Assembly: GCA_949290785.1 (NCBI GenBank)
Contig: CASETE010000011.1
Coordinates: 5,893 to 69,892, forward strand
From: an uncultured Pseudomonadota bacterium
GTDB taxonomy: Bacteria; Pseudomonadota; Alphaproteobacteria; Rs-D84
Reading direction: 5' to 3'
DNA: 64,000 nucleotides
Made by a program: the position numbers and the translations under genes. The notes beneath the pieces were generated by a model. That model was not told where the DNA came from. It did no database searches and saw only the letters and a list, made by a program, of their open reading frames with translations. Positions 1 to 40,658 of the stretch are shown here, one piece after another; the first letter of the stretch is position 1, and every line of letters begins with the position of its first letter.

Positions 1-1822
1 ACCTTGATTGCAAATCCAACGTATCGTTTTCTTCATTGAAAATATCGCCGTATTGTAAAGGATCAACCCACTTTTTAAGTGCCGAACGCATATTACCAGA
101 CGAAGAGAAACAACTTTCCCAAAGATTTTTCAACAACCTATCTTTGTTATCAAGATAATCAAAATTAACAGAAACCGCACGAGCAATTTCATCTGCTGAA
201 TTTGCATCAGTTTGACCTGAAATCATAGCCAACCAACGACGTAAGAAAGCGCGGTTTACTGCATTATCGGGCATTTTAAGCGGATTTAAATGCGTTTGAA
301 AATCTATGACAGACTTTTCTTTTTCTTTACCTTGCATGGTTATATATTTACCGCCAACGGATAAAGTAAATATTTCTGCCCCTTTGTTTCTATCAAAGAA
401 GAATGCCTTTAATTTTTTGTGACGTAAAGATTGTGCAATCAAGAACGAGAATAATGTAGTTTTACCGCCACCTGTTGGACCGATTGTTAACGTATGTCCC
501 ACAGCTGCGGGTTTATCAGAAACATGAAACTGGAATTGATACGGCGTTCCCTGTGCGGTTGGGAATATTACAAGCGGCCCTTGCCCCCAGTCACTGTTTG
601 TAACGCCGGTTGGTTGACTGGACATAGGTATACTGATTGCCGCGGTTCTGGATAACATTTTAAAACTGCGTGGAAAAACGTCAAAACCAGGCAATTGTGC
701 AAACCATGAAACTGTAGATGCGAACGTTTCTACAATCGGTGAAATACCGAATGAGGCAGAAATTTTCTTAAATTCATCAACATACTTTTGTAATTCTTCT
801 TGTGTTGCACCGAAGACTATAAACAATGGGTAATAATTAACAAGACTTTGATTACCAGAAATATTTTCATCCATTGCTGTTTGTGCCGCGGATATTTGTT
901 CTTCTGCTACATCATTATTTTTATCTGCCGTTGATATTCTTTGACGTATAGCCATTTCTACGTCCGCGCTGCCCATAATTTTAAAAGCATTCATACATAT
1001 CATTTCTGTTTGAATGGTAGAAACTGTATTGAAAAAATCTTCGTCCAGATAATCAGGCGACATTTTAAATGAAATCATCGATGCAAAAGATTGCTTTCCA
1101 CCGCTTATATACCTAACAACACCATCTTTTAAAAATTCTACATCATCAACAGTTGTTACGTTTGCAATATTTTGATCACACGCAATTGGTTCTGGTTTTG
1201 TAATTGGCGATAAAATGCGACCAAAAAACTTTGCCATATTATCATGTAAATTGTTACGTAAAAGTACCGGTCTGTATGCGGCCAATATAGATTCAATATA
1301 ATTACAATATTGATTTAGTTTATCTCTTGCATTATTACCAGACACAGATAAAACAACATAATAATTATTATTAAATATACGCAGACCTTGTTCTTGCCAT
1401 TTATCGTAAATTTTTTGTAAAACAGGTTGGTCAAATTCGTAATTTGTATTTTCATCTATTGCGTCACGCATCATATAAAAACGTAATATGACATTTTTAT
1501 CACGAATTTGGTTAAATAATTGAGCCCTCAAATCCAAAAATTTTTCTTTTGTTGCGTCGTCTTGCATACTTGTCTGAACGCCTGCAATTTTATAGACACG
1601 TAAAATACTGCCATCTGTCAAAGTCAAAGAATCATCGTTATAAACTGTACCAAAAGGCAAATATTGAGAATAATTCGCATAACCAAACTTAGGGAATATT
1701 CGGCGAGTTATGGCAGGTATATATAACATCAAAATGATAAATAAAAACACCACCGCCATAACTAATATTATGGTAGTGATAGGAAATCCAGCACCTGCAA
1801 AATAATTAAAAAAACTTGTCAT
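1..1822 (-). CDS. virB4: Type IV secretion system ATPase VirB4 (C-terminus beyond window edge; ~607 N-terminal codons present)
   Basis: Uninterrupted minus-strand reading frame from ATG at ~1822 to position 1 (not in ORF track because truncated). Walker A GPTGGGKTT at ~440-470. ATG overlaps the stop of the upstream VirB3-like ORF (classic virB3-virB4 coupling). Confidence 0.75.
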   Translation of the reverse strand, partial: MTSFFNYFAGAGFPITTIILVMAVVFLFIILMLYIPAITRRIFPKFGYANYSQYLPFGTVYNDDSLTLTDGSILRVYKIAGVQTSMQDDATKEKFLDLRAQLFNQIRDKNVILRFYMMRDAIDENTNYEFDQPVLQKIYDKWQEQGLRIFNNNYYVVLSVSGNNARDKLNQYCNYIESILAAYRPVLLRNNLHDNMAKFFGRILSPITKPEPIACDQNIANVTTVDDVEFLKDGVVRYISGGKQSFASMISFKMSPDYLDEDFFNTVSTIQTEMICMNAFKIMGSADVEMAIRQRISTADKNNDVAEEQISAAQTAMDENISGNQSLVNYYPLFIVFGATQEELQKYVDEFKKISASFGISPIVETFASTVSWFAQLPGFDVFPRSFKMLSRTAAISIPMSSQPTGVTNSDWGQGPLVIFPTAQGTPYQFQFHVSDKPAAVGHTLTIGPTGGGKTTLFSFLIAQSLRHKKLKAFFFDRNKGAEIFTLSVGGKYITMQGKEKEKSVIDFQTHLNPLKMPDNAVNRAFLRRWLAMISGQTDANSADEIARAVSVNFDYLDNKDRLLKNLWESCFSSSGNMRSALKKWVDPLQYGDIFNEENDTLDLQSR

Positions 1823-14172: not shown

Positions 14173-14185
14173 GCCTTGGCGGCAG

Positions 14186-14232
14186 GTGTTTTATTTTGTA
14201 TGATAAAGCCGTCTATTGACGGCTTTTTATGT
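14186..14232 (+). promoter_or_regulatory. Candidate pheST attenuator: mini-ORF GTG-TTT-TAT-TTT-GTA-TGA (fMFYFV) whose stop abuts an intrinsic terminator (AAAGCCGTC-TATTG-ACGGCTTT + T5) 15 nt before the pheS ATG
   Basis: Hairpin plus T run lies between rplT and pheS, the position of the E. coli pheM leader/attenuator. The ORF-track start at 14176 would place this terminator inside coding sequence, so the pheS start is taken as 14248 (SD AAGGTGG). Confidence 0.35.
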
Positions 14233-14247
14233 TTTAAGGTGGAATCC

Positions 14248-19675: not shown

Positions 19676-22600
19676 TTATCCTTTATGCTTTTTTATAGAA
19701 ATAGATAGGTTATAACCTTCTATTTCTGTGTTATATTTTCCGTCACCACGTGACATATTTGTTATTAATGCCTCGTCCATAATGTGTTGGCGGTGTTGTT
19801 CAATAGCATTTGCCAATGCTGGATCTGCATTATATTCTAATATTATCCTGTCTGACACATCCATACCAGCATTTTTTCTGGTATCTTGTATGAAACGCAA
19901 TGCGTCATTTGCCAGACCTTCGGCAACCAGTTCTGAATTTATTTCGGTATCCAACACAATAACAGCGGTATTGTCTGGCAAGGCGCAACCCGTTACACCC
20001 TGTTTTACGGTTAAACGTTTTTCAAATTCATCAGAATTTAAAGTATATTGCCCGACTTTCAACTTAGCGTCAGACATTTCGTATTCGCCACGTTTTACAG
20101 CAGGTATGATTTCTTTTAATGCGCCACCCAATCTTGCACCGATTTTCGGTGTAATTAGGTATACAAAAGAATCTGCCACGCCCGAGATATCGTCAGTAAA
20201 TTGAATTTCTTTTATATTTAATTCGTCTTTTATTATATCCGCGTATTCTGTTAAATCAGTTCCTGCAACCGTCATCTTAGACAGTGGAAGACGATTGCGC
20301 AGTTTATATTGTTCACGCAGTTGTTTGCCAACAGAAACGATTGATTGCACGCGACGCATATCTTCTACGATTTTATGGTCGTATTCTTGTGCAACAGGGA
20401 AAGATTGCAGATGCACACTTTCTGTTCCCGTTAAGTTTTTGTAAATATAGTCGCTGATAAATGGAGCAAACGGTGCCAACGTGCGACATAGATTTATTAA
20501 AACGTAATACAAGGTATCAAATGCGTCTTGTTCTTCATCCCAGAAACGTGCGCGACCACGACGAATATACCAGTTATTTAATACGTCCAAGAACCTTACG
20601 AATTCTTTAATTGCAACGTCTGGTTTATATTCGTTAAGTGCTGTGGATACAACAGAAACTAACTCGTTTAATTCTGCCAAGATATATTTATCCAACACGT
20701 TTTCTGAATCTGTTTTTTCTTGCGCTGTTATATTTCCAGCGTTTGCGTATAAAGTAAAGAAGTGATACGCATTCCACAGCGGCGTCAGAATTGTCTTTGT
20801 TGATTCTGTAAAGACCTTGCCTTCTATGTCAATTCCAACTGGTTCCGCCTTTAAGAAGTTTGAACCTAATATGAATAAACGTACCGCGTCTGCACCATAT
20901 TTTTCAATCTGTTCTTCTGGGTTAACAAAGTTCCCCAAAGATTTAGACATTTTCTTTTTGTTATCATCAACGACCATACCATTTACAGAAACGGTCTTGA
21001 ACGCAGGCTTATCAAATAACGCGGTTGCCAAAACCATCAAAGAATAAAACCAACCGCGTGTTTGATCTTGACCTTCTATTATATAGTCAGCAGGGAAAGT
21101 CGCTTCAAATTTATCTGCGTTTTCAAATGGGTAATGCAGCGATGCAAAAGGCATAGAACCAGATTCAACCCAGCAATCTAAAACGTCTGTAATACGTTTC
21201 CACCCGTCTTTTGTAAGTGCGTCTAATGTCGGGCGATGCAGGTCATGAATTTCCACACCGAAAAATTCTTCCATTTCTGAAATAGAGCCAAAGATTTTAT
21301 ACTGCCCGTCTTTTTCCCATATCGGCAGTGGTGTTCCCCAGAAACGATTTCTTGATACAGACCATGGACGTGCACCTTCTATCCAGGACAAAAAGCGGTC
21401 GCCGGCAGAAGTCCATTTTGTATAGTTTTTTGTATTCTCAATTAATTTTTCACGGATTTTTGGTACGTCAATATACCAAGAATCTGTTGCACGATAAATC
21501 AGCTTTTCTTTACTACGTGGACCATATGGATAACTATGTTTATATTGTTCTTTTTTAACTAGGTGACCGTTATCACGCAGGTGCTGTATAATTTTTGGGT
21601 TTGCGACGAATATATTTTCCCCTGCCCAATCTTTGACTTCATTCGTAAAATTACCATAGTCATCAACGTTTAATAGAACCGGGAACCTTGGGTCAATGTT
21701 TTTTGCTGCCCAGAAGTCATCTTCACCATAAGCTGGTGCGATATGAACGATACCAGTACCGTCAGAATCAGATACGTATTCAGCAGGTATGATTTGATAT
21801 AACAAACCTGTTTCGTCATTTGAATAGTAATCAAACAAAGGACGATATTTTTTACCGACCAGTTCACTGCCTTTTAATTCGCCAATCTTTTTTGTGGCTG
21901 CAAATTGCTTTTCATATGCAGAAAGTCTGGTTTCAGCGATTACATAAACGCTGCCGTCTTCGTCTTGCATGCGAAGATAGTTCATGTTTGGGTTTACTGC
22001 CAAAGCGGAATTTGCCGGCAAAGTCCATGGTGTTGTTGTCCATGCCAATACTCTGTCCCCGTTTTCTAGTTCAAACCAAACAGTGATTGCGTCATCAACG
22101 ACGTCTTGATATTCACTAGATGCTTCAGAATTAGATAAAACGGTACCTAACTTCCAATCAAACGGGTTAACACGATAATCTTTATATAACAAGCCCTTAT
22201 TATGCAATTCTTTCATTGCCCATATAACAGATTCCATATAATTTTTGTCCATTGTGCGATAGCCTTTTTCATCACCGCCATCAACCCAACGACCGATACG
22301 TTCAATAAATTTTAGCCACTCATTAGAATATGTTAAAACATCATTTCTGCACATATCACAGAATGCTGCAATACCGTCTGTTGCGACAATATCTTTTGCT
22401 TGTCTGCCTTGCTTTTTTTCAGCGGATGCTTCTGCGGGCAGTCCATGGCAATCCCAACCAAGTTCGCGAACAACATGTTTTCCAAGCATGGTCTGATAAC
22501 GACCAACCATATCTTTTACGGCAGAAACGCCCAAGTGTCCCCAATGTGGCAAATTATTTGCAAAAGGAGGTCCGTCATAGAACGAGAAAGGATGGCCTAA

Positions 22601-22711
22601 TTTAGTTTGATTTAAAGACTTGTGAAAGGTGTCATCACTTCTCCAGAAAGTCAGCATTTCTTGTTCCAGTTTTGGGAAATCGGCTTTTGGTTCTGTTTTT
22701 GGGTATGCCAT
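19676..22711 (-). CDS. ileS: Isoleucine--tRNA ligase (long ~1011 aa form)
   Basis: Class I aaRS with HxGH-type (PHWGH) and KMSKS motifs; editing and anticodon-binding regions. Confidence 0.9.
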   Translation of the reverse strand: MAYPKTEPKADFPKLEQEMLTFWRSDDTFHKSLNQTKLGHPFSFYDGPPFANNLPHWGHLGVSAVKDMVGRYQTMLGKHVVRELGWDCHGLPAEASAEKKQGRQAKDIVATDGIAAFCDMCRNDVLTYSNEWLKFIERIGRWVDGGDEKGYRTMDKNYMESVIWAMKELHNKGLLYKDYRVNPFDWKLGTVLSNSEASSEYQDVVDDAITVWFELENGDRVLAWTTTPWTLPANSALAVNPNMNYLRMQDEDGSVYVIAETRLSAYEKQFAATKKIGELKGSELVGKKYRPLFDYYSNDETGLLYQIIPAEYVSDSDGTGIVHIAPAYGEDDFWAAKNIDPRFPVLLNVDDYGNFTNEVKDWAGENIFVANPKIIQHLRDNGHLVKKEQYKHSYPYGPRSKEKLIYRATDSWYIDVPKIREKLIENTKNYTKWTSAGDRFLSWIEGARPWSVSRNRFWGTPLPIWEKDGQYKIFGSISEMEEFFGVEIHDLHRPTLDALTKDGWKRITDVLDCWVESGSMPFASLHYPFENADKFEATFPADYIIEGQDQTRGWFYSLMVLATALFDKPAFKTVSVNGMVVDDNKKKMSKSLGNFVNPEEQIEKYGADAVRLFILGSNFLKAEPVGIDIEGKVFTESTKTILTPLWNAYHFFTLYANAGNITAQEKTDSENVLDKYILAELNELVSVVSTALNEYKPDVAIKEFVRFLDVLNNWYIRRGRARFWDEEQDAFDTLYYVLINLCRTLAPFAPFISDYIYKNLTGTESVHLQSFPVAQEYDHKIVEDMRRVQSIVSVGKQLREQYKLRNRLPLSKMTVAGTDLTEYADIIKDELNIKEIQFTDDISGVADSFVYLITPKIGARLGGALKEIIPAVKRGEYEMSDAKLKVGQYTLNSDEFEKRLTVKQGVTGCALPDNTAVIVLDTEINSELVAEGLANDALRFIQDTRKNAGMDVSDRIILEYNADPALANAIEQHRQHIMDEALITNMSRGDGKYNTEIEGYNLSISIKKHKG

Positions 22712-22735
22712 AATAAAAACTCCGTTTGGTTTTAT

Positions 22736-22822
22736 TTATAAAAAACGGGCGCCTATGCGCCCCAGCCACGTGCAGAAGCGCGGTGCCGAGTTATTTTATA
22801 ATAATTATGCTTGTTAATTTCA
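22736..22822 (-). promoter_or_regulatory. Candidate ileS leader-peptide attenuator: 10-codon ORF MKLTSIIIIK (22790-22822) followed by terminator GGGCGC-ATAG-GCGCCC + GTTTTTTA (22736-22761), 24 nt before the ileS ATG
   Basis: Read on the minus strand: ATG AAA TTA ACA AGC ATA ATT ATT ATA AAA TAA, then GC-rich hairpin and T run in the ileS orientation. Four consecutive Ile codons directly upstream of the Ile-tRNA synthetase gene. Confidence 0.45.
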
Positions 22823-22936
22823 TTGCTAGTGCAATTTTAGTATAGAAAAATATAAAATGCTAGTTTTTTTTATAAAAAAGTTGAAATTTGTTTATTTTTA
22901 TGGTGTAATATTCCCCGCTAAAAAAGGATTTAGAAG

Positions 22937-23305
22937 ATGAGCAGTAAAAAAATAGATAGTAAATTATTAATGATAAAGACCGTAAACATAGCGCAACGCA
23001 GTTGCGTATTGACTGTATTACCAATGGTTTTATTTGGTGCGGTGTTTGCTTGTCCTGCAATGGGTTTGTGTGATTCAATAAACGCGGTAAGAAACACCAA
23101 GGATAAAAGCAAGCGCGCAAAGGTTGGTATAGATACTGCGGCAGATACAATTTGTAAAGTTGCCAAAGTACCGTTTGAGTTTGTTGTTGAAACATACAAA
23201 TATGGAACAGAAAAGTTAGAAAAATACAAATCTCAGAATCAGAAGTTTGAGTTAGCTAAAAAAAACATCGTTCAAACAAAACAGCGAAGCGCGCGGCAAA
23301 GATAA
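22937..23305 (+). CDS. Hypothetical protein (122 aa), one hydrophobic segment
   Basis: ORF followed by hairpin terminator AAAGCCAC-TTTT-GTGGCTTTTTT at ~23306-23330; no recognisable domain. Confidence 0.3.
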   Translation: MSSKKIDSKLLMIKTVNIAQRSCVLTVLPMVLFGAVFACPAMGLCDSINAVRNTKDKSKRAKVGIDTAADTICKVAKVPFEFVVETYKYGTEKLEKYKSQNQKFELAKKNIVQTKQRSARQR

Positions 23306-23336
23306 AAAGCCACTTTTGTGGCTTTTTTAATTTATC

Positions 23337-27424: not shown

Positions 27425-27955
27425 TTATACTTTGCGCACAGAGAATTCGCAACCGCAATAATTCTGACGATAAAAATTAGAATTTCTGCCAATTTCTTGA
27501 CGTAATTTTTCATCCCACTTGATTGGTATATAGGAAATATCTCCTAAAGAGCACTGTGCAGCACGGTCAACTTGTGATTGGTCTTTGTGTCGTGATACAC
27601 CAAATACAGATGCGACCGCGTCATATCCATTTTCTTTTGCCCAACGTCGTGCAAATTCAAATCTGAATTCAAAGCAACGACTGCAACGTGCACCTCGCTC
27701 TGGTTCGGCTTCTAAACCACGTACTGCACCGCGCCAGTCTTCGTGATTGTAATTTCCAACAGCGTATTTAACGCCCAAAGATTCGCAATATTTTATTTGC
27801 TCGTTCAGGCGTTTTGTATATTCTGCAGCGGGAAAAATGTTCGGGTTAAAGAACAACACAACAAAGTCATCAACGTCAGGTATTTCGCCGTCCGCTAATT
27901 GCTTTATTGCACCCGCACTGCAAGGTGCACAACAAGACATCAGAACCAGTTTCAT
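27425..27955 (-). CDS. queH: Epoxyqueuosine reductase QueH (DUF208)
   Basis: Conserved CCAPCS and C-terminal NYCGCEFS motifs. ATG overlaps the metG stop (ATGA), suggesting translational coupling. Confidence 0.75.
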   Translation of the reverse strand: MKLVLMSCCAPCSAGAIKQLADGEIPDVDDFVVLFFNPNIFPAAEYTKRLNEQIKYCESLGVKYAVGNYNHEDWRGAVRGLEAEPERGARCSRCFEFRFEFARRWAKENGYDAVASVFGVSRHKDQSQVDRAAQCSLGDISYIPIKWDEKLRQEIGRNSNFYRQNYCGCEFSVRKV

Positions 27956-29955
27956 TTTATTTCCCAAATACTGCCTATTTTTGCATCACTATCCAGTTCT
28001 ATTATTTCATCTGCGTTATTGCCCTGTCCCAGTTCTGCGGCACTGCACATCATACCGAAAGACTCAGTTCCTGCAATTGTGCGCTGGGATATAGGCTTTT
28101 TCATTGTCGGCAGCACGCAACCAACAGGTGCCAATATGCCAATTAACCCAACACGAACATTTGGCGCGCCACATACAATTTGTAAATTATGATTTGTACC
28201 GTCATCAACTGTTAAAAGATGCAAGTCATCACGTGATGGATGATTTTTTACTTCGATTATTTTAGCAACAACAGGTTTAACATTGTTGTCTTCTTTTTTA
28301 GCATATTTTTCAGTCAACTCTGCAACGCGCGCATCATCAATTCTGGAAAATAAGTTTTCTGGAACTGTGAAAGCTTCGCCATTTTGAATTCTGCGTTCAA
28401 ATTCTTTTGGCCAAGACAGGTCGTGCGTGTTGTTAAATACACGCTGTATTTTTTCTGCAGCATCTGGAATAAACGGTGCGGAAACGCGCGCATACAAGTC
28501 TATCAGTTGAAAGCATTCGTTTAGTACTGCACCCGCTTGCCCGGCGTTTCCATTTTTCACAAGCGCCCACGGTTCTTTAACAGTCATATATTCGTTACCA
28601 ATTGCATACAACGAACGCAACGCAACAACAGCCACACGGAATTCGCATGCGTCCAGCGCAGCAGTAAGTTCTGCAATTTTTTCGTTTACTTGCGCAGTTA
28701 AAGAAGCATCTAATTCGCCTGCATTTGGAACGGTTAGTCCAAAATTTTTATCAGTCAGTTTGCAAACGCGCGAAACAAAGTTACCCAACATACCGTTTAG
28801 GTCTTTATTGACGATGTCCGCAAAGCGCGCAAAAGTAAAGTCTGTATCGTCTGTTTCTGGTGCGGATGCAATCAGCGCATAACGCCAAGCGTCAGCAGGT
28901 GCAATGCTGACTGCTTCGTCCAAGAACACACCGCGCTTTTCAGATTTAGAAAACTTACCGCCTTCAAAATTCAGGAAGTTCATCGCTTTTAACTGGTCAA
29001 CAGTTTTCCAGTTGTCGTTCATCGCCAGTTGCTGTTCAGGGAATAAAACCGCATGGAACTTAACATTATCCTTGCCCATAAATTGTGCATAATGACAATC
29101 AGGATTTTTCCACCATGTTTCCCAGTCTTTATTTGCAGCCTGCGATATAGAAACATAACCCCAAGGTGCATCAAACCAAACATAGAAAACTTTATTTTCG
29201 TACCCTTCTTTATTTACAGGAATACCCCATGACAAATCACGTGTAATAGAATAGTCCAACAGACCGATTTTCTGCCAACCGTATGCGATACTTTTTGCAG
29301 TTTTTGACCAACCACTTGAATGAGTAGTCAACCAATCGTCCCAAAGCTTTTGCGCCTTTGATGCTAAAAAGAACAGATTTTTTGTTGGGCGTAGTTCAAT
29401 ATTACTGCTGCCAGATATTGTGCTGCGTGGGTTTAAAAGTTCTGTTGCTTCATATGTCGCACTGCACTTATCACATTGGTCGCCACGTGCCTTATCATAA
29501 CCGCACTTTGGGCAGGTTCCAACTAACTGACGGTCTGCCAAGAACATGTTATCATCAACAGAGAAAGGTTGCAGTGTTTCACGTTCTTCAATCAATCCCA
29601 GCTCATCAAGACGAGAAAATAAATCTTGGACTAATTTTTCCTGCAATTCTGTATGTGTACGTCCATAAATATCAAAAGATAAGTTAAAATTACGAACCGC
29701 ACGTAAATGTTTTTCGTAATATTTATTAGAATAATCAAAAGGCGACATATTTTCTTTCATAGCACCGACAACAACAGGTGTACCATGTTCGTCTGCCCCG
29801 CAAACATATAATACATCACGTCCGCATGCGCGACAAAAGCGGGCATATATATCCGAAGGCAACCAGCACCCGATAAGGTGCCCCAAGTGCAATTCGCCAT
29901 TAACATATGGCAATGCAGAAGTAATAAGATATTTTTGTTTATTGTCAGTTGTCAT
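27952..29955 (-). CDS. metG: Methionine--tRNA ligase with C-terminal EMAP/Trbp111-like tRNA-binding domain
   Basis: PYVNGELHLGHL (HIGH) and KFSKS (KMSKS) motifs; Zn knuckle CPKCG..CDKC. Start at MTTDNKQ (29955); the ORF-track TTG extension would run through the terminator hairpin. Confidence 0.9.
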   Translation of the reverse strand: MTTDNKQKYLITSALPYVNGELHLGHLIGCWLPSDIYARFCRACGRDVLYVCGADEHGTPVVVGAMKENMSPFDYSNKYYEKHLRAVRNFNLSFDIYGRTHTELQEKLVQDLFSRLDELGLIEERETLQPFSVDDNMFLADRQLVGTCPKCGYDKARGDQCDKCSATYEATELLNPRSTISGSSNIELRPTKNLFFLASKAQKLWDDWLTTHSSGWSKTAKSIAYGWQKIGLLDYSITRDLSWGIPVNKEGYENKVFYVWFDAPWGYVSISQAANKDWETWWKNPDCHYAQFMGKDNVKFHAVLFPEQQLAMNDNWKTVDQLKAMNFLNFEGGKFSKSEKRGVFLDEAVSIAPADAWRYALIASAPETDDTDFTFARFADIVNKDLNGMLGNFVSRVCKLTDKNFGLTVPNAGELDASLTAQVNEKIAELTAALDACEFRVAVVALRSLYAIGNEYMTVKEPWALVKNGNAGQAGAVLNECFQLIDLYARVSAPFIPDAAEKIQRVFNNTHDLSWPKEFERRIQNGEAFTVPENLFSRIDDARVAELTEKYAKKEDNNVKPVVAKIIEVKNHPSRDDLHLLTVDDGTNHNLQIVCGAPNVRVGLIGILAPVGCVLPTMKKPISQRTIAGTESFGMMCSAAELGQGNNADEIIELDSDAKIGSIWEIK

Positions 29956-29977: not shown

Positions 29978-30050
29978 AAAAAGGTGCCCAACGGGGCACC
30001 CAGGAATCCCGTCAGAAATTTTAGTAAGATTAATTGTACATTCGCATCAT
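29978..30050 (-). promoter_or_regulatory. Candidate metG leader-peptide attenuator: ORF MMRMYN (30030-30050) then terminator GGTGCCC-CGTT-GGGCACC + T5 (29978-30000), ~27 nt before the metG ATG. An alternative ACGGG:CCCGT pairing could act as an antiterminator
   Basis: Minus strand reads ATG ATG CGA ATG TAC AAT TAA (3 Met codons of 6), 29 nt spacer, perfect 7 bp GC hairpin, T run, metG. Lies between tRNA-Val(GAC) and metG. Confidence 0.45.
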
Positions 30051-30071: not shown

Positions 30072-30148
30072 TGGTGGGTGGTATTGGACTCGAACCAACG
30101 ACCTTTACGATGTCAACGTAACGCTCTAACCAACTGAGCTAACCACCC
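30072..30148 (-). tRNA. tRNA-Val (anticodon GAC)
   Basis: GGGTGGTTAGCTCAGTTGGTTAGAGCGTTACGTTGACATCGTAAAGGTCGTTGGTTCGAGTCCAATACCACCCACCA; perfect 7 bp acceptor stem; encoded CCA. Confidence 0.85.
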
Positions 30149-30162
30149 GATATTTTTCGGTG

Positions 30163-30237
30163 CTATGTCCAGAAAGCCAACGACCTTTACGATGTCAACG
30201 TACGCGGCTGACCAACTGAGCTAACCACCCGATAGAC
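30163..30237 (-). pseudogene. Truncated/degenerate duplicate of tRNA-Val(GAC): 5' acceptor strand, mutated D arm, anticodon arm, variable loop; no T arm or 3' acceptor
   Basis: About 52 nt nearly identical to positions 1-52 of the adjacent tRNA (..CCAACGACCTTTACGATGTCAACGTA..CCAACTGAGCTAACCACCCGA) with the D stem disrupted (CGCGGCTGACC for ACGCTCTAACC). Confidence 0.6.
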
Positions 30238-37309: not shown

Positions 37310-38635
37310 ATGAAAAAGTTGTTTTTCTTGTTATTCTTTACGCCATTACCGGTATTCGCATCGGCAGATTGTTTGTCTACGAATACAGTCCCCCAAGGCA
37401 AACTTACTCTACAACAAGTAATAGAATTGGGGTTATGTAGAAATCCTGAAACAACTTCTGCGTATTTGTCTTTGGAATCTGCAAGGTTTAACAAAAACGC
37501 CGGATACGCACAATATTTACCAAGCGTCAGCGCATCTGGTTCTGCGACTTTGCCGTATAGAAACGAAGAATGGGCCGATTGGTCATATGGCGCGTCTATT
37601 TCTGCGTCGTATTTGATTTTTGATTTCGGAAAAAGATTGTCGGATGTGAACCAACTTATTGCGACATGGCGGGCAACTGGTTTTGATTACAGCGAATCCG
37701 TTCAAAATTACGTATACGGTATAATAGGTGCGTATTATGCTTTGTTGAATGCGGACGCTGACGTAATGACAGCGCAATCTTTAAAGGTTGTTGCGCAAAC
37801 CGCAAAAGATACCGCCGATAAGAAATACAAGGCTGGTGCCGTCGCCAAGGCAGATGTGTTGAAAGCAGATACGACGCTGGCCAGTCGCGAATTAGATTTA
37901 GAAAGGGCAAAGAACAACCGCGAAATCGCCAAGGGGACTTTGCTGTCTAAATTGTCTTTTTCTGCGAACCAGAATATAGAAATTGCAGATATGCCGGCAG
38001 AATTCGGCACTGAATCAGAGAATAAAAACATAGATGAATTAATTGCGTTGGCTGAACAAAAGCGCCCTGACCTGTTGCGTGCGTCTGCAAATAAAGACGC
38101 CGCATGGCACAGAAGAAATAGTGCTTTTTTAAGTAATTTGCCAAGTATTTCTGCTTCTGGCAGTTTGTCTTGGAATAACTCGCCGTCAGATGTGTTTAAC
38201 GCGGGTCAAGATAATGTAAGCGGCAGTATCGGGATTCGGGCATCTATGCCGATATTTGCCGGTTTTGCAAATGTATATAATGTACGGTCTGCCCAGGCAA
38301 ACTATGAACGCGCCAAAGAACAAGAACGGGCAACGAAAGATGCAGCGGTACTAGACGTATTTACTGCGTATCAGAATTATAAAACGGCGCAAACTGTATT
38401 GAAACAAACGGAAACTTTATTGGCTTCTGCAAAAGAAACAGAAAAGGTTACTGCCGGTATGTATAAGGTCGGCAAGGCCACGATGTTGGACTGGCAAACC
38501 GCCTTGGCGGATTTGGCCGATGCGCATAAACAAAATAATGCGGCAAAATATGACTTGTTCACAAAACGTGCGGCCTTGGCGTTGGCAATAGGCGATATAA
38601 AAGACGGATTAATGGAGGATGAGGTAGATGAATAA
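37310..38635 (+). CDS. TolC-family outer-membrane efflux channel (OMF)
   Basis: Signal peptide MKKLFFLLFFTPLPVFA, two repeated OEP coiled-coil/beta halves, 441 aa; -10 TATAAT at ~37274; first gene of an efflux operon. Confidence 0.7.
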   Translation: MKKLFFLLFFTPLPVFASADCLSTNTVPQGKLTLQQVIELGLCRNPETTSAYLSLESARFNKNAGYAQYLPSVSASGSATLPYRNEEWADWSYGASISASYLIFDFGKRLSDVNQLIATWRATGFDYSESVQNYVYGIIGAYYALLNADADVMTAQSLKVVAQTAKDTADKKYKAGAVAKADVLKADTTLASRELDLERAKNNREIAKGTLLSKLSFSANQNIEIADMPAEFGTESENKNIDELIALAEQKRPDLLRASANKDAAWHRRNSAFLSNLPSISASGSLSWNNSPSDVFNAGQDNVSGSIGIRASMPIFAGFANVYNVRSAQANYERAKEQERATKDAAVLDVFTAYQNYKTAQTVLKQTETLLASAKETEKVTAGMYKVGKATMLDWQTALADLADAHKQNNAAKYDLFTKRAALALAIGDIKDGLMEDEVDE

Positions 38636-39809
38636 AGAGTCTAAATTAAAGAAAATATGGTCATGGATTAAAAGACGTAAATGGTGGTTGATATCATTTT
38701 TGGTTGTTGCTGGTGCGGTTGTTTATTTTATGTTATCCGGCGGCAGTAAAGAAAATACGGGTTTTGCTACTGCTTCCATTACGCGCGGTAATTTGCGTCA
38801 GGTTGTAACGGCGACCGGTGAAATACAACCTTTGAATACGATTAATGTAGGATCACAGGTAAGCGGTACAATTGAAGAAATATTCGTTGATTATAATTCA
38901 CGGGTAAGTAAAGGTGATGTGCTATTAAAAATCGAGCCGTCAGTATTGCAAGCGTCTGTTGATGAAGCCAAGGCGTCTTTGGTAAGTGCAGAATCACAAC
39001 GTGATTACGCTAAAAGCGAATACGAACGTAATAAAATTTTATATGAAGATGGATTTATAGCACGTGCAGAATTGGAACAATCTCAGACAACATATGAACA
39101 AGCGGAACAATCGGTTAATCGTATGAAGTCTCAGTATGACAGAGCAGTTACGAATTTAAGTTATGCAACGATTACATCGCCTGTTGACGGTACGGTAATT
39201 TCTCGTCAGGTTGACGTTGGGCAAACCGTTGCGGCTTCTTTCCAAACGCCTGACTTGTTCGCAATCGCAGAAGATTTATCAAAAATGCAGATTGAAACCG
39301 CTGTGTCAGAGGCTGATATTGGCATGATAACCGAAGGTCAAAAAGTAACTTTTACTGTAGACGCATATCCAACACAAACCTTTGAAGGCGAAGTGCGTCA
39401 AATTCGTCTGTCTCCTACAATCACTTCAAACGTTGTAGTTTATACGGTTGTAATTGACGTTGATAACAGCGATTTGCGGTTAAAGCCTGGAATGACGGCG
39501 TTCGTTACAATATTAATTTCAGAAAAAGACGATGTGTGGAAAGTGCAGAATTCATCACTTATTTTGCGTAGTTTTGACGGTATCGTTGAAGACGCGGGTG
39601 ATGCAACAACAAAAACTCATTTGGCGATACAACGTAATATTAACGGTAACCCAACCGTTGTATTGGTGCCGTATGAAAAGGGATTGGTTACCGCTACAGA
39701 AACGGAAATCATCTCGGATGATATTCAAGAAGGAGATAGAGTAATCATAGGTCGCTATGGGCAAAGTTCTTCATCGTCATCTGGTATTCGTATGGGGCCT
39801 CCAAGATAA
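38628..39809 (+). CDS. HlyD/MacA-family periplasmic adaptor (membrane fusion protein)
   Basis: N-terminal TM anchor, coiled-coil hairpin, lipoyl/beta-barrel domains; overlaps the TolC-like gene. Confidence 0.75.
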   Translation: MNKESKLKKIWSWIKRRKWWLISFLVVAGAVVYFMLSGGSKENTGFATASITRGNLRQVVTATGEIQPLNTINVGSQVSGTIEEIFVDYNSRVSKGDVLLKIEPSVLQASVDEAKASLVSAESQRDYAKSEYERNKILYEDGFIARAELEQSQTTYEQAEQSVNRMKSQYDRAVTNLSYATITSPVDGTVISRQVDVGQTVAASFQTPDLFAIAEDLSKMQIETAVSEADIGMITEGQKVTFTVDAYPTQTFEGEVRQIRLSPTITSNVVVYTVVIDVDNSDLRLKPGMTAFVTILISEKDDVWKVQNSSLILRSFDGIVEDAGDATTKTHLAIQRNINGNPTVVLVPYEKGLVTATETEIISDDIQEGDRVIIGRYGQSSSSSSGIRMGPPR

Positions 39810-39911
39810 AATAGGAATAGTTTGTAACCGGCAAAACGCCGGTTTTTTTAAAATAGTTTTATGAAAAAATGGTAACGGATGGTATAATGTTCTCAGAAAG
39901 AGAGTGTAGTA

Positions 39912-40658
39912 ATGAATAAATCGCAAAACAAAGTTAATATAATTTCAATGGATAAAATCTGTAAAAGTTTTCCCGTTGAAATGGGCGGGCAACAACAGGT
40001 TTTGTTTGATATAACATTTGATGTTAACCAGGGCGAGTTCGTTTCTATTATGGGGCCGTCCGGCAGTGGCAAATCTACATGCATGAATATAATAGGTGCC
40101 TTGGATACGCCAACAAGTGGCACATATAAATTATACGGCAAAGATGTTACACATTTATCGGCGGACGAATTAGCAATTGTCAGAAACGAATATATCGGAT
40201 TCGTCTTTCAACAGTTTAATTTACTTTCTAAAAGAAGCGTTTTAGACAACGTTATGTTGCCGTTGATGTATCGTGGTTTGCCAATGGAGGAACGCATACG
40301 CAGGGCGCGTGAAATGTTAAAACGAGTAGGACTAGAAAAATTTGAATCTTATTTGCCGACGCAATTATCTGGTGGTATGAAACAGCGCGTGGCTATTGCA
40401 CGTGCGCTGGCAGGTGACCCAAAGTTAATTCTTGCAGACGAACCGACGGGTGCTTTGGACAGTAAAATGGGTAATGAAATATTAAAGTTTTTTAAAACAT
40501 TAAACGAAGAAATGGGGATAACAATCGTTATGATTACCCATGAATTTGAAATTGCGCGATATTCAGATCGTCTTATACACATTTATGACGGAAGAATAAC
40601 TTATGATGGAAAAATACCGAAAGACGAAAAAACGTTATTAAAACACACAGGGAAATAG
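39912..40658 (+). CDS. MacB/LolD-type ABC transporter ATP-binding protein
   Basis: Walker A GPSGSGKST, Q-loop, signature LSGGMKQRVAIARAL, Walker B ILADEPTGALD. Confidence 0.8.
   Translation: MNKSQNKVNIISMDKICKSFPVEMGGQQQVLFDITFDVNQGEFVSIMGPSGSGKSTCMNIIGALDTPTSGTYKLYGKDVTHLSADELAIVRNEYIGFVFQQFNLLSKRSVLDNVMLPLMYRGLPMEERIRRAREMLKRVGLEKFESYLPTQLSGGMKQRVAIARALAGDPKLILADEPTGALDSKMGNEILKFFKTLNEEMGITIVMITHEFEIARYSDRLIHIYDGRITYDGKIPKDEKTLLKHTGK

Follow-up and report, generated by a model that had tools for sequence, protein, structure and literature searches.

A probable isoleucine-sensing leader-peptide attenuator upstream of ileS in gut Alphaproteobacteria

Introduction

In the 64 kb stretch of DNA analysed here (hereafter the window), whose source is a gut alphaproteobacterium close to 'Candidatus Enterousia', the gene for isoleucyl-tRNA synthetase, ileS, is preceded by a very short ORF with four consecutive isoleucine codons and, between this ORF and the gene, by an intrinsic terminator. 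This arrangement raises the question of whether transcription of ileS is controlled by ribosomes translating an isoleucine-rich leader peptide, as an earlier reading of the sequence alone had proposed, or whether ORF and hairpin serve some other purpose. To our knowledge, the matching of synthetase expression to tRNA charging is known in Proteobacteria for few genes only, such as pheST and thrS, and T-boxes, the general Gram-positive solution, are absent from this group.

Results

The ileS gene (19676..22711, minus strand, ATG at 22711) encodes a synthetase of 1011 aa, the presumed regulated product, and its homologues carry the IleRS domains PF00133, PF08264 and PF19302. Direct reading of the minus strand upstream of it reveals the leader ORF MKLTSIIIIK* (22823..22791), which consists of ten codons plus TAA. 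Its ATG (22823-22821) is followed by AAA TTA ACA AGC, by the four proposed sensing codons ATA ATT ATT ATA (22808..22797), by a lysine codon (AAA) and by the stop codon (22793-22791). No Shine-Dalgarno sequence was found before the leader ORF of the window by direct reading; that of ileS itself (GGAG) lies at 22723..22720, minus strand. A GC-rich segment of 28 nt leads from the leader stop codon to the terminator stem-loop GGGCGC-AUAG-GCGCCC (22762..22747, minus strand; hereafter T), recovered both by a terminator scan and by folding, and after a G at 22746 this is followed by a tract of six U (22745..22740; reading and terminator scan). The Ile-codon ORF and the terminator described by the sequence-only reading are thus real and lie within a base or two of where it had placed them. 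Its span fell short at the upstream end, the ORF beginning one base further upstream (22823), and the gap of 24 nt that it gave between terminator and ileS ATG measures 28 nt from the end of the U run. Runs of at least four Ile codons occur five times in the six frames of the window, and MKLTSIIIIK* alone among them sits in an ORF of at most 25 codons, which marks it as more than a chance feature. At the Rfam gathering threshold the window produced no match to the T-box (RF00230) or to the Thr, Leu, His, Trp or Phe leader families; at E<=10, positions 22650..22950 yielded just three chance-level matches to unrelated families (E about 1-7), the T-box not among them.

The occurrence of the leader was analysed in relatives recovered by a scan of one genome per species, which provided 80 loci (IleRS 74-97% identical), nearly all of them from metagenome-assembled genomes of gut or rumen origin that carry the label Alphaproteobacteria or 'Candidatus Enterousia'. 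The informative set consists of the 79 loci with enough upstream sequence; one more locus, L112, came to light later. The sequence-only reading had suggested a search of related genomes for a conserved short Ile-rich ORF with a hairpin, and this combination, together with a U run, is present in 79/79 informative loci and also in L112. The shared pattern is M-x4-IIII-(K/R/E/Q/G)-stop, starting with ATG or, rarely, GTG. Codons 2-5 are free to vary, each position showing 11-17 different codons, stops never among them, and codons 6-9 specify isoleucine in 279/280 instances, the lone exception being GTA (Val). The codon after the Ile run is usually AAA or AGA, the stop codon is TAA in 69/70, and leader lengths of 9, 10 or 11 codons differ by whole codons. 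A motif search for further copies in the related loci found the leader motif solely in front of ileS. This is the variation pattern of an ORF whose isoleucines are the sole constrained residues, and from it we infer that the ORF is translated. The Ile codons alternate among ATA, ATT and ATC, yet their synonymous sites are nearly invariant (ATA ATT ATT ATW), and this near-fixation points to a constraint at the RNA level on top of coding.

Each leader was folded separately, and three helices recur throughout. In the window these are P1 (22788..22763, minus strand; CGGC..CG.GC-UUCU-GC.CG..GCUG), a predicted anti-antiterminator or possible pause hairpin that begins 2 nt past the leader stop codon; AT, a putative antiterminator hairpin formed by GCGCUUCUGC and GGCUGGGGCGC (22781..22757, minus strand; -13.5 kcal/mol); and the terminator T. 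Across the relatives, AT pairs (U)GCGCUUUGGC with GCUGGGGCGC(A), and T pairs GGGGCGC with GCGCCCC, then U5-9. AT and T are rivals for GGGGCGC (GGGCGC, the 5' arm of T, in the window), P1 and AT are rivals for the 5' arm of AT, and P1 and T are compatible with each other. Mean predicted energies are -10.6 kcal/mol for P1, -14.9 for AT and -10.7 for T, AT being more stable than T alone. All three helices are predicted in essentially all sequences, so that the mutually exclusive terminator and antiterminator foldings that the sequence-only reading had recommended looking for are found well beyond the window, with an anti-antiterminator in addition.

The three helices are supported by the comparison in different ways. 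For T, 96.4% of cells are paired in a MAFFT alignment, two pairs are changed on both sides (CG to UA in five sequences), and the observed values were reached in only 0-1/500 shuffles. For AT, the paired share is 93% of cells across 75 sequences, versus at most 57% when the partner is slid; most of this helix does not vary, so that covariation falls short of significance, the sole triple compensation being that of L053, in which all three strands have changed together (GCAC/GUGC/GCAC). P1 occurs in two registers that do not permit column-wise counting, and strand-swap (chimera) tests were used; in these, cognate strands paired better than non-cognate ones in 2000/2000 permutations for each of P1, AT, T and a further helix, P0, described below. 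RNAalifold on the MAFFT alignment recovered AT alone, with indels misaligning P1 and the 3' arm of T. T and P1 are backed by compensatory changes, and AT by conservation and one triple compensation. Near-invariance should be expected of a strand with two alternative partners, and it is weaker evidence than covariation.

Taken by itself, the window sequence gives modest shuffle z-scores (-2.2 for the full leader), and the case for an attenuator, as read from sequence, is one that rests on comparison across relatives and not on the thermodynamics of one sequence. In progressive masking, AT was the equilibrium MFE structure in at most 35/76 sequences, and in the window the equilibrium fold retains T even with P1 masked, which implies that AT must win kinetically. 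The order of synthesis would favour this, as the 3' arm of AT is made before that of T, giving AT a kinetic head start.

The spacing of these parts is tightly kept. P1 starts 0-3 nt past the stop codon in 69/76 sequences, the distance from stop codon to 5' arm of T is 26-29 nt in 73/76, and the U run measures 5-9 nt in all relatives. Across the relatives the ileS ATG follows the last base of the U run after 17-38 nt, and a gap this short leaves no room for a promoter, indicating that ileS is transcribed through the terminator. The locus presents, at the level of its sequence, what is looked for in an attenuator: a cognate-codon ORF, a downstream terminator without promoter room and a predicted exclusive antiterminator.

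To relate this spacing to the position of a ribosome, the RNA after the stop codon was masked stepwise and the best structure with T was compared with the best structure without it, a constrained energy difference that proved more informative than the equilibrium MFE. With nothing masked, the T state is ahead by 5.9 kcal/mol. With the first 7-8 nt masked the two states are about equal, AT being slightly ahead (+0.25 to +0.66 kcal/mol), and with 11 nt or more masked the T state is again favoured, by 5-8 kcal/mol. In the folding model, a classical attenuator would be expected to show just such a three-state profile. By toeprinting and footprinting, a ribosome covers about 12-15 nt past the first A-site base. 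A ribosome stalled with the Ile4 or the Lys codon in its A site would accordingly fall in the AT window, one at the stop codon would fall in the T zone, and an absent ribosome would lead to T; the exact positions are deduced from this footprint and the masking scan. The sensing codons lie upstream of P1 and not inside it; in trp or his leaders they lie inside region 1. Geometrically, if the leading edge of the ribosome lies 12 nt beyond the A site, P1 should be within reach of a stall at the Ile4 or Lys codon alone. A stall at Ile1-2 would not disturb P1, which is a weak point of the model.

The further helix, P0, joins the sensing codons to the terminator. In the window its 5' strand UUAUUAUAAAAUAAC (22801..22790, minus strand) runs from the last part of the Ile codons through the Lys and stop codons to one base beyond, and its 3' strand GUUUUUUAUAA (22746..22736, minus strand) comprises the U tract and the next 4 nt; in the whole-leader MFE structure P0 closes a three-way junction P0-P1-T. 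The longest contiguous P0 helix averages 8.3 bp in 75 distinct leaders versus 6.3 bp for shuffled 3' windows, reaching at least 10 bp in 24/75, and about a quarter of the leaders have little pairing. Compensatory changes occur in L043 and L068 (GAA/UUC), in L069 (AUC/GAU) and at Ile4, where AUA or AUU goes with UAU or AAU after the U run. P0 is the sole structure covered by a ribosome stalled anywhere in the Ile run, and pairing of this kind would explain why these codons hardly vary at synonymous positions. The distal pairs of P0 involve bases past the point where transcripts usually terminate and hence can form only in read-through RNA. Three roles can be envisaged: P0 may extend the terminator as an A-tract/U-tract pairing that a stalled ribosome blocks, it may shield AU-rich single strands or stabilise the released leader RNA, or it may influence the ribosome-binding region of ileS.

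The existence of P0 brings up the possibility that the locus is a switch made of RNA only, in which the Ile codons are an untranslated A/U-rich strand of P0 and some protein, tRNA or small molecule decides among P1, AT and T. The nearly invariant synonymous sites, the complementarity of the Ile stretch to the U-tract region with its compensatory changes, and the window ORF devoid of a Shine-Dalgarno sequence would all suit such a switch. It does not account for the way in which the Ile run is framed in nearly all 79 loci, with an ATG or GTG exactly five codons ahead and a stop one codon behind, nor for length changes by whole codons, the lack of stops in codons 2-5 and a sole substitution that is Val (GTA). 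The locus also matches no Rfam family, T-box included, and the leaders described below carry Met codons at metG and, in a second lineage, Ile codons in a differently built leader. We regard a switch of this type as unlikely.

P0 also bears on the idea that the element acts on translation or mRNA stability, leader translation or the P0-P1-T junction modulating access of ribosomes to ileS or cleavage by RNase, with termination secondary. That the distal P0 pairs are confined to read-through RNA, and that about 12 nt separate the junction from the ileS Shine-Dalgarno, could be taken in its favour. However, the Shine-Dalgarno and start codon of ileS are part of no conserved helix, every sequence carries a canonical terminator whose U run measures 5-9 nt, and in about a quarter of the sequences P0 is weak or missing, all of which makes control at this level quite unlikely as the main function.

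A candidate promoter for the leader transcript was identified by consensus scan and reading in an AT-rich stretch at 22876..22834 (minus strand). It can be read either as CTAGCA (22863..22858), an 18-nt spacer and TAAAAT (22839..22834), or, from the consensus scan, as TTTATA-16-TATATT (22876..22849). In about 35 relatives a TGTAtAAT-like -10 box ends 7-9 nt before the leader ATG, a spacing that suggests a leaderless or nearly leaderless mRNA. In 28/80 relatives (including L004, L007 and L009) the upstream neighbour of the leader ORF is a tRNA-Thr gene on the same strand, 9-16 nt from the leader ATG in most of them and 46-51 nt in six, and given this closeness the leader is probably co-transcribed with it. 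A divergent plus-strand ORF of 122 codons (22937..23305) with its own bidirectional terminator (23304..23327) takes this place in the window, a minus-strand tRNA-Thr lying beyond it. No Pfam match was obtained for this ORF. It also occurs in L001, the closest relative, which matches the window exactly over the upstream 200 nt, and it is absent from this position in the 28 relatives with tRNA-Thr 9-51 nt before the leader.

These neighbourhoods bear on a simpler explanation, namely that the hairpin is a constitutive terminator or insulator that ends the upstream tRNA-Thr or a promoter-proximal transcript, the ORF being incidental and ileS owing its expression to basal read-through or to a promoter that escaped recognition. 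Where tRNA-Thr lies upstream on the same strand, T could indeed serve as its terminator. Yet the leader is kept where no such tRNA is adjacent, as in the window, whose divergent neighbour has its own terminator, so that the hairpin there ends no adjacent minus-strand gene; there are only 17-38 nt between U run and ATG; and the conserved ORF, P1 and AT have no role in a plain terminator. Such a function appears highly improbable, and the scenario that the sequence-only reading had itself raised against attenuation, an upstream gene's terminator followed by a promoter for ileS, fails on the same short gap and divergent neighbour.

The sequence-only reading had also stated that the pattern recurs at metG and pheS in the window, and this holds for metG. 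Upstream of metG (27952..29955, minus strand) lies a leader ORF MMRMYN* (30050..30030, minus strand), followed by a terminator GGUGCCC-CGUU-GGGCACC (30000..29983) with a U5 tract (29982..29978), also on the minus strand. This leader is conserved in relatives, the ORF being kept as M(K)RMxx* in 34/65 related metG loci. The leader can form an ACGGG/CCCGU antiterminator, with compensatory changes to AUGGG/CCCAU in L108 and to ACAGG/CCUGU in L112. The Met codon is always preceded by CGA, the rarest Arg codon in the genes of the window. An intact tRNA-Val(gac) gene lies upstream of the metG leader (30072..30148), and just upstream of it there is a degenerate partial tRNA-Val copy (~30160..30229, minus strand) that ARAGORN does not call. 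In many genomes, synthetase leaders are apparently co-transcribed with non-cognate tRNAs in this way, tRNA-Thr with ileS and tRNA-Val with metG.

At pheS the claim proved wrong: a terminator is present, a conserved Phe ORF is not. The rplT-pheS spacer (14173..14247, plus strand) contains a conserved terminator, AAAGCCGUC-UAUU-GACGGCUUUUU (14205..14228, plus strand), and, directly after the rplT stop codon, a conserved CCUUGGCGG box that could pair with the 5' arm of the terminator. The only Phe-containing mini-ORF in this spacer, the leader candidate (V)FYFV* (14186..14203; GTG TTT TAT TTT GTA TGA), is specific to the window genome and was rejected, its start codon being lost in three relatives. 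Termination upstream of pheS might instead be set by ribosomes finishing rplT. Intrinsic terminators are found 10-28 nt upstream of all three synthetase genes of the window and of just one other real gene. In that case a terminator-like hairpin with a U7 tract (39817..39849, plus strand) lies between an HlyD-family gene (38628..39809) and a gene at 39912.

In order to place the leader outside this lineage, more distant ileS loci were sought. With the window IleRS as query, a homologue search gave no relative below 81% identity, and outgroups were obtained through 50%-cluster representatives and a second search, the nearest other IleRS clusters being 45-49% identical to the window protein. No Ile-rich leader ORF was found in four of the eight outgroup ileS loci (L164, L166, L168 and L171). 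L165 has a 22-codon ORF with five Ile codons, MKKFTNNFAHQPINSNIISAII* (~1045..1113), upstream of its distant ileS, with no obvious terminator. The remaining three loci are closely related and share a second design: MKRFFRPYIPFIIIP* in L167 (~1081..1128), MCSFIQNINIIIIP* in L169 (~1067..1111) and MKLNFQISNIFNIIP* in L170 (~1048..1095), with ileS at 1201 in each. These leaders end in ...FIIIP*, ...NIIIIP* and ...FNIIP*, respectively, and their Ile codons abut the terminator, an AUC-CCC-UAA-GGGGAU hairpin whose loop contains the stop codon and after which a U tract comes. The lineage, known from metagenomes, has an IleRS about 46% identical to that of the window. As this second lineage builds its Ile leader in another way, Ile-codon leaders have arisen more than once before ileS, and this repeated origin supports a sensing function.

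Discussion

The best explanation of these observations, and one that we consider probable, is that the ileS element is a leader-peptide transcription attenuator through which ribosomes respond to the supply of charged tRNA-Ile. The ORF conserved in every informative locus and the alternative foldings predicted in essentially all of them support the ribosome-mediated attenuation proposed by the sequence-only reading. Ile codons before ileS, Met codons before metG and a second Ile leader in another lineage are together hard to explain without decoding.

According to this model, transcription would start just upstream of the leader ORF or, in many relatives, read through from tRNA-Thr. With no ribosome on the leader, P1 and then T would fold and polymerase would halt in the U tract, some 28 nt short of ileS. 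Were a ribosome to stall as it nears the end of the four Ile codons, it would cover the 5' strand of P1, and the sequence so freed would pair with GGGGCGC, forming AT while the 3' arm of T has yet to be synthesised and allowing polymerase to enter ileS. A ribosome that reaches the stop codon would also cover the base of AT, and T would form again. The outcome would be that more IleRS is made when charged tRNA-Ile is short. We infer the direction, from stalling to read-through, on functional grounds: the reversed logic, in which a stall leads to termination, was rejected as a positive feedback that would shut off a limiting essential enzyme.

Isoleucine is among the sensing codons of the enterobacterial leader-peptide attenuators ilvL, ivbL and thrL, which differ from the present element in their longer leaders, mixed Ile/Val/Leu or Thr/Ile codons and location before biosynthetic operons. 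For a synthetase, an experimentally proven example is the gammaproteobacterial pheM leader, which follows rplT and has 14 codons, five of them Phe. The ileS leader resembles E. coli pheM/pheST in that a short ORF of cognate codons and then an intrinsic terminator precede a synthetase operon, and it contrasts with pheM in having ten codons with four Ile, in a genome whose own rplT-pheS spacer lacks a conserved Phe ORF. The pheST operon of E. coli is the model case of synthetase leader-peptide attenuation (PMC1262725). In Streptomyces, leuS and trpS have been predicted by comparative genomics to carry classical attenuators (PMC1262725), which share with the ileS element a cognate-codon ORF, an antiterminator and a terminator and differ in the amino acids sensed and the phylum. 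The ileS gene of Actinobacteria carries a T-box (PMC1262725). T-box leaders of ileS in Firmicutes and Actinobacteria have the same goal of tying ileS expression to the charging of tRNA-Ile (PMC1262725), but they are about 200 nt long and bind uncharged tRNA directly, with no ribosome needed.

Among Alphaproteobacteria, the trpL leader of Sinorhizobium meliloti (rnTrpL / peTrpL) is an attenuator ORF located, leaderless, at the 5' end of its transcript (PMC10117765). It is likewise an alphaproteobacterial leader-peptide attenuator, and a leaderless start is suggested for the ileS leader by the spacing of the -10 box; it differs in having 14 codons, in sensing Trp before a biosynthetic gene, and in that the released RNA and peptide act in trans. 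Closer to the present gene, ribosome profiling of Caulobacter crescentus has named an 'ileS leader CDS' (CCNA_03934) and a trpS leader CDS (PMC4117421). The passages of that paper that deal with CCNA_03934 just name it and use it as a negative control, giving no sequence, terminator, alternative structures or regulation (PMC4117421). What it shares with our element is a small ORF, translated in Caulobacter, before an alphaproteobacterial ileS. Our literature search found no paper on an ileS attenuator of this kind, this passing mention being the closest. The sequence-only reading, which was aware of no such description for ileS in this lineage, therefore stands as regards a described attenuator and needs correction in that an ileS leader CDS had, by the passages cited, already been named.

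The mechanism itself is classical, here applied to ileS, and the element is an unusually clean one. A broader proposal, which we put forward tentatively and consider less likely than not, is that in these reduced-genome gut alphaproteobacteria the synthetase genes are governed as a set by miniature leader peptides (IIII for ileS, M(K)RM for metG), leaderless or co-transcribed with tRNAs, that fill the role of the T-box. The ileS leader would, under the same proposal, be a variant in which the sensing codons pair through P0 with the U tract, so that a stalled ribosome disables the terminator directly, beyond the 1:2 / 2:3 competition.

The P0 pairing between codons and U tract could prove to be such a mechanistic variant, and it bears on the question of how the position of a ribosome is read out. 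In an element of only about 85 nt, all parts of an attenuator appear to be present. Together with its metG sister and the Ile leader of the second lineage, it suggests that leader-peptide attenuation of synthetase genes is commoner than curated RNA families show, and it hints at a wider synthetase regulon in this little-known gut lineage.
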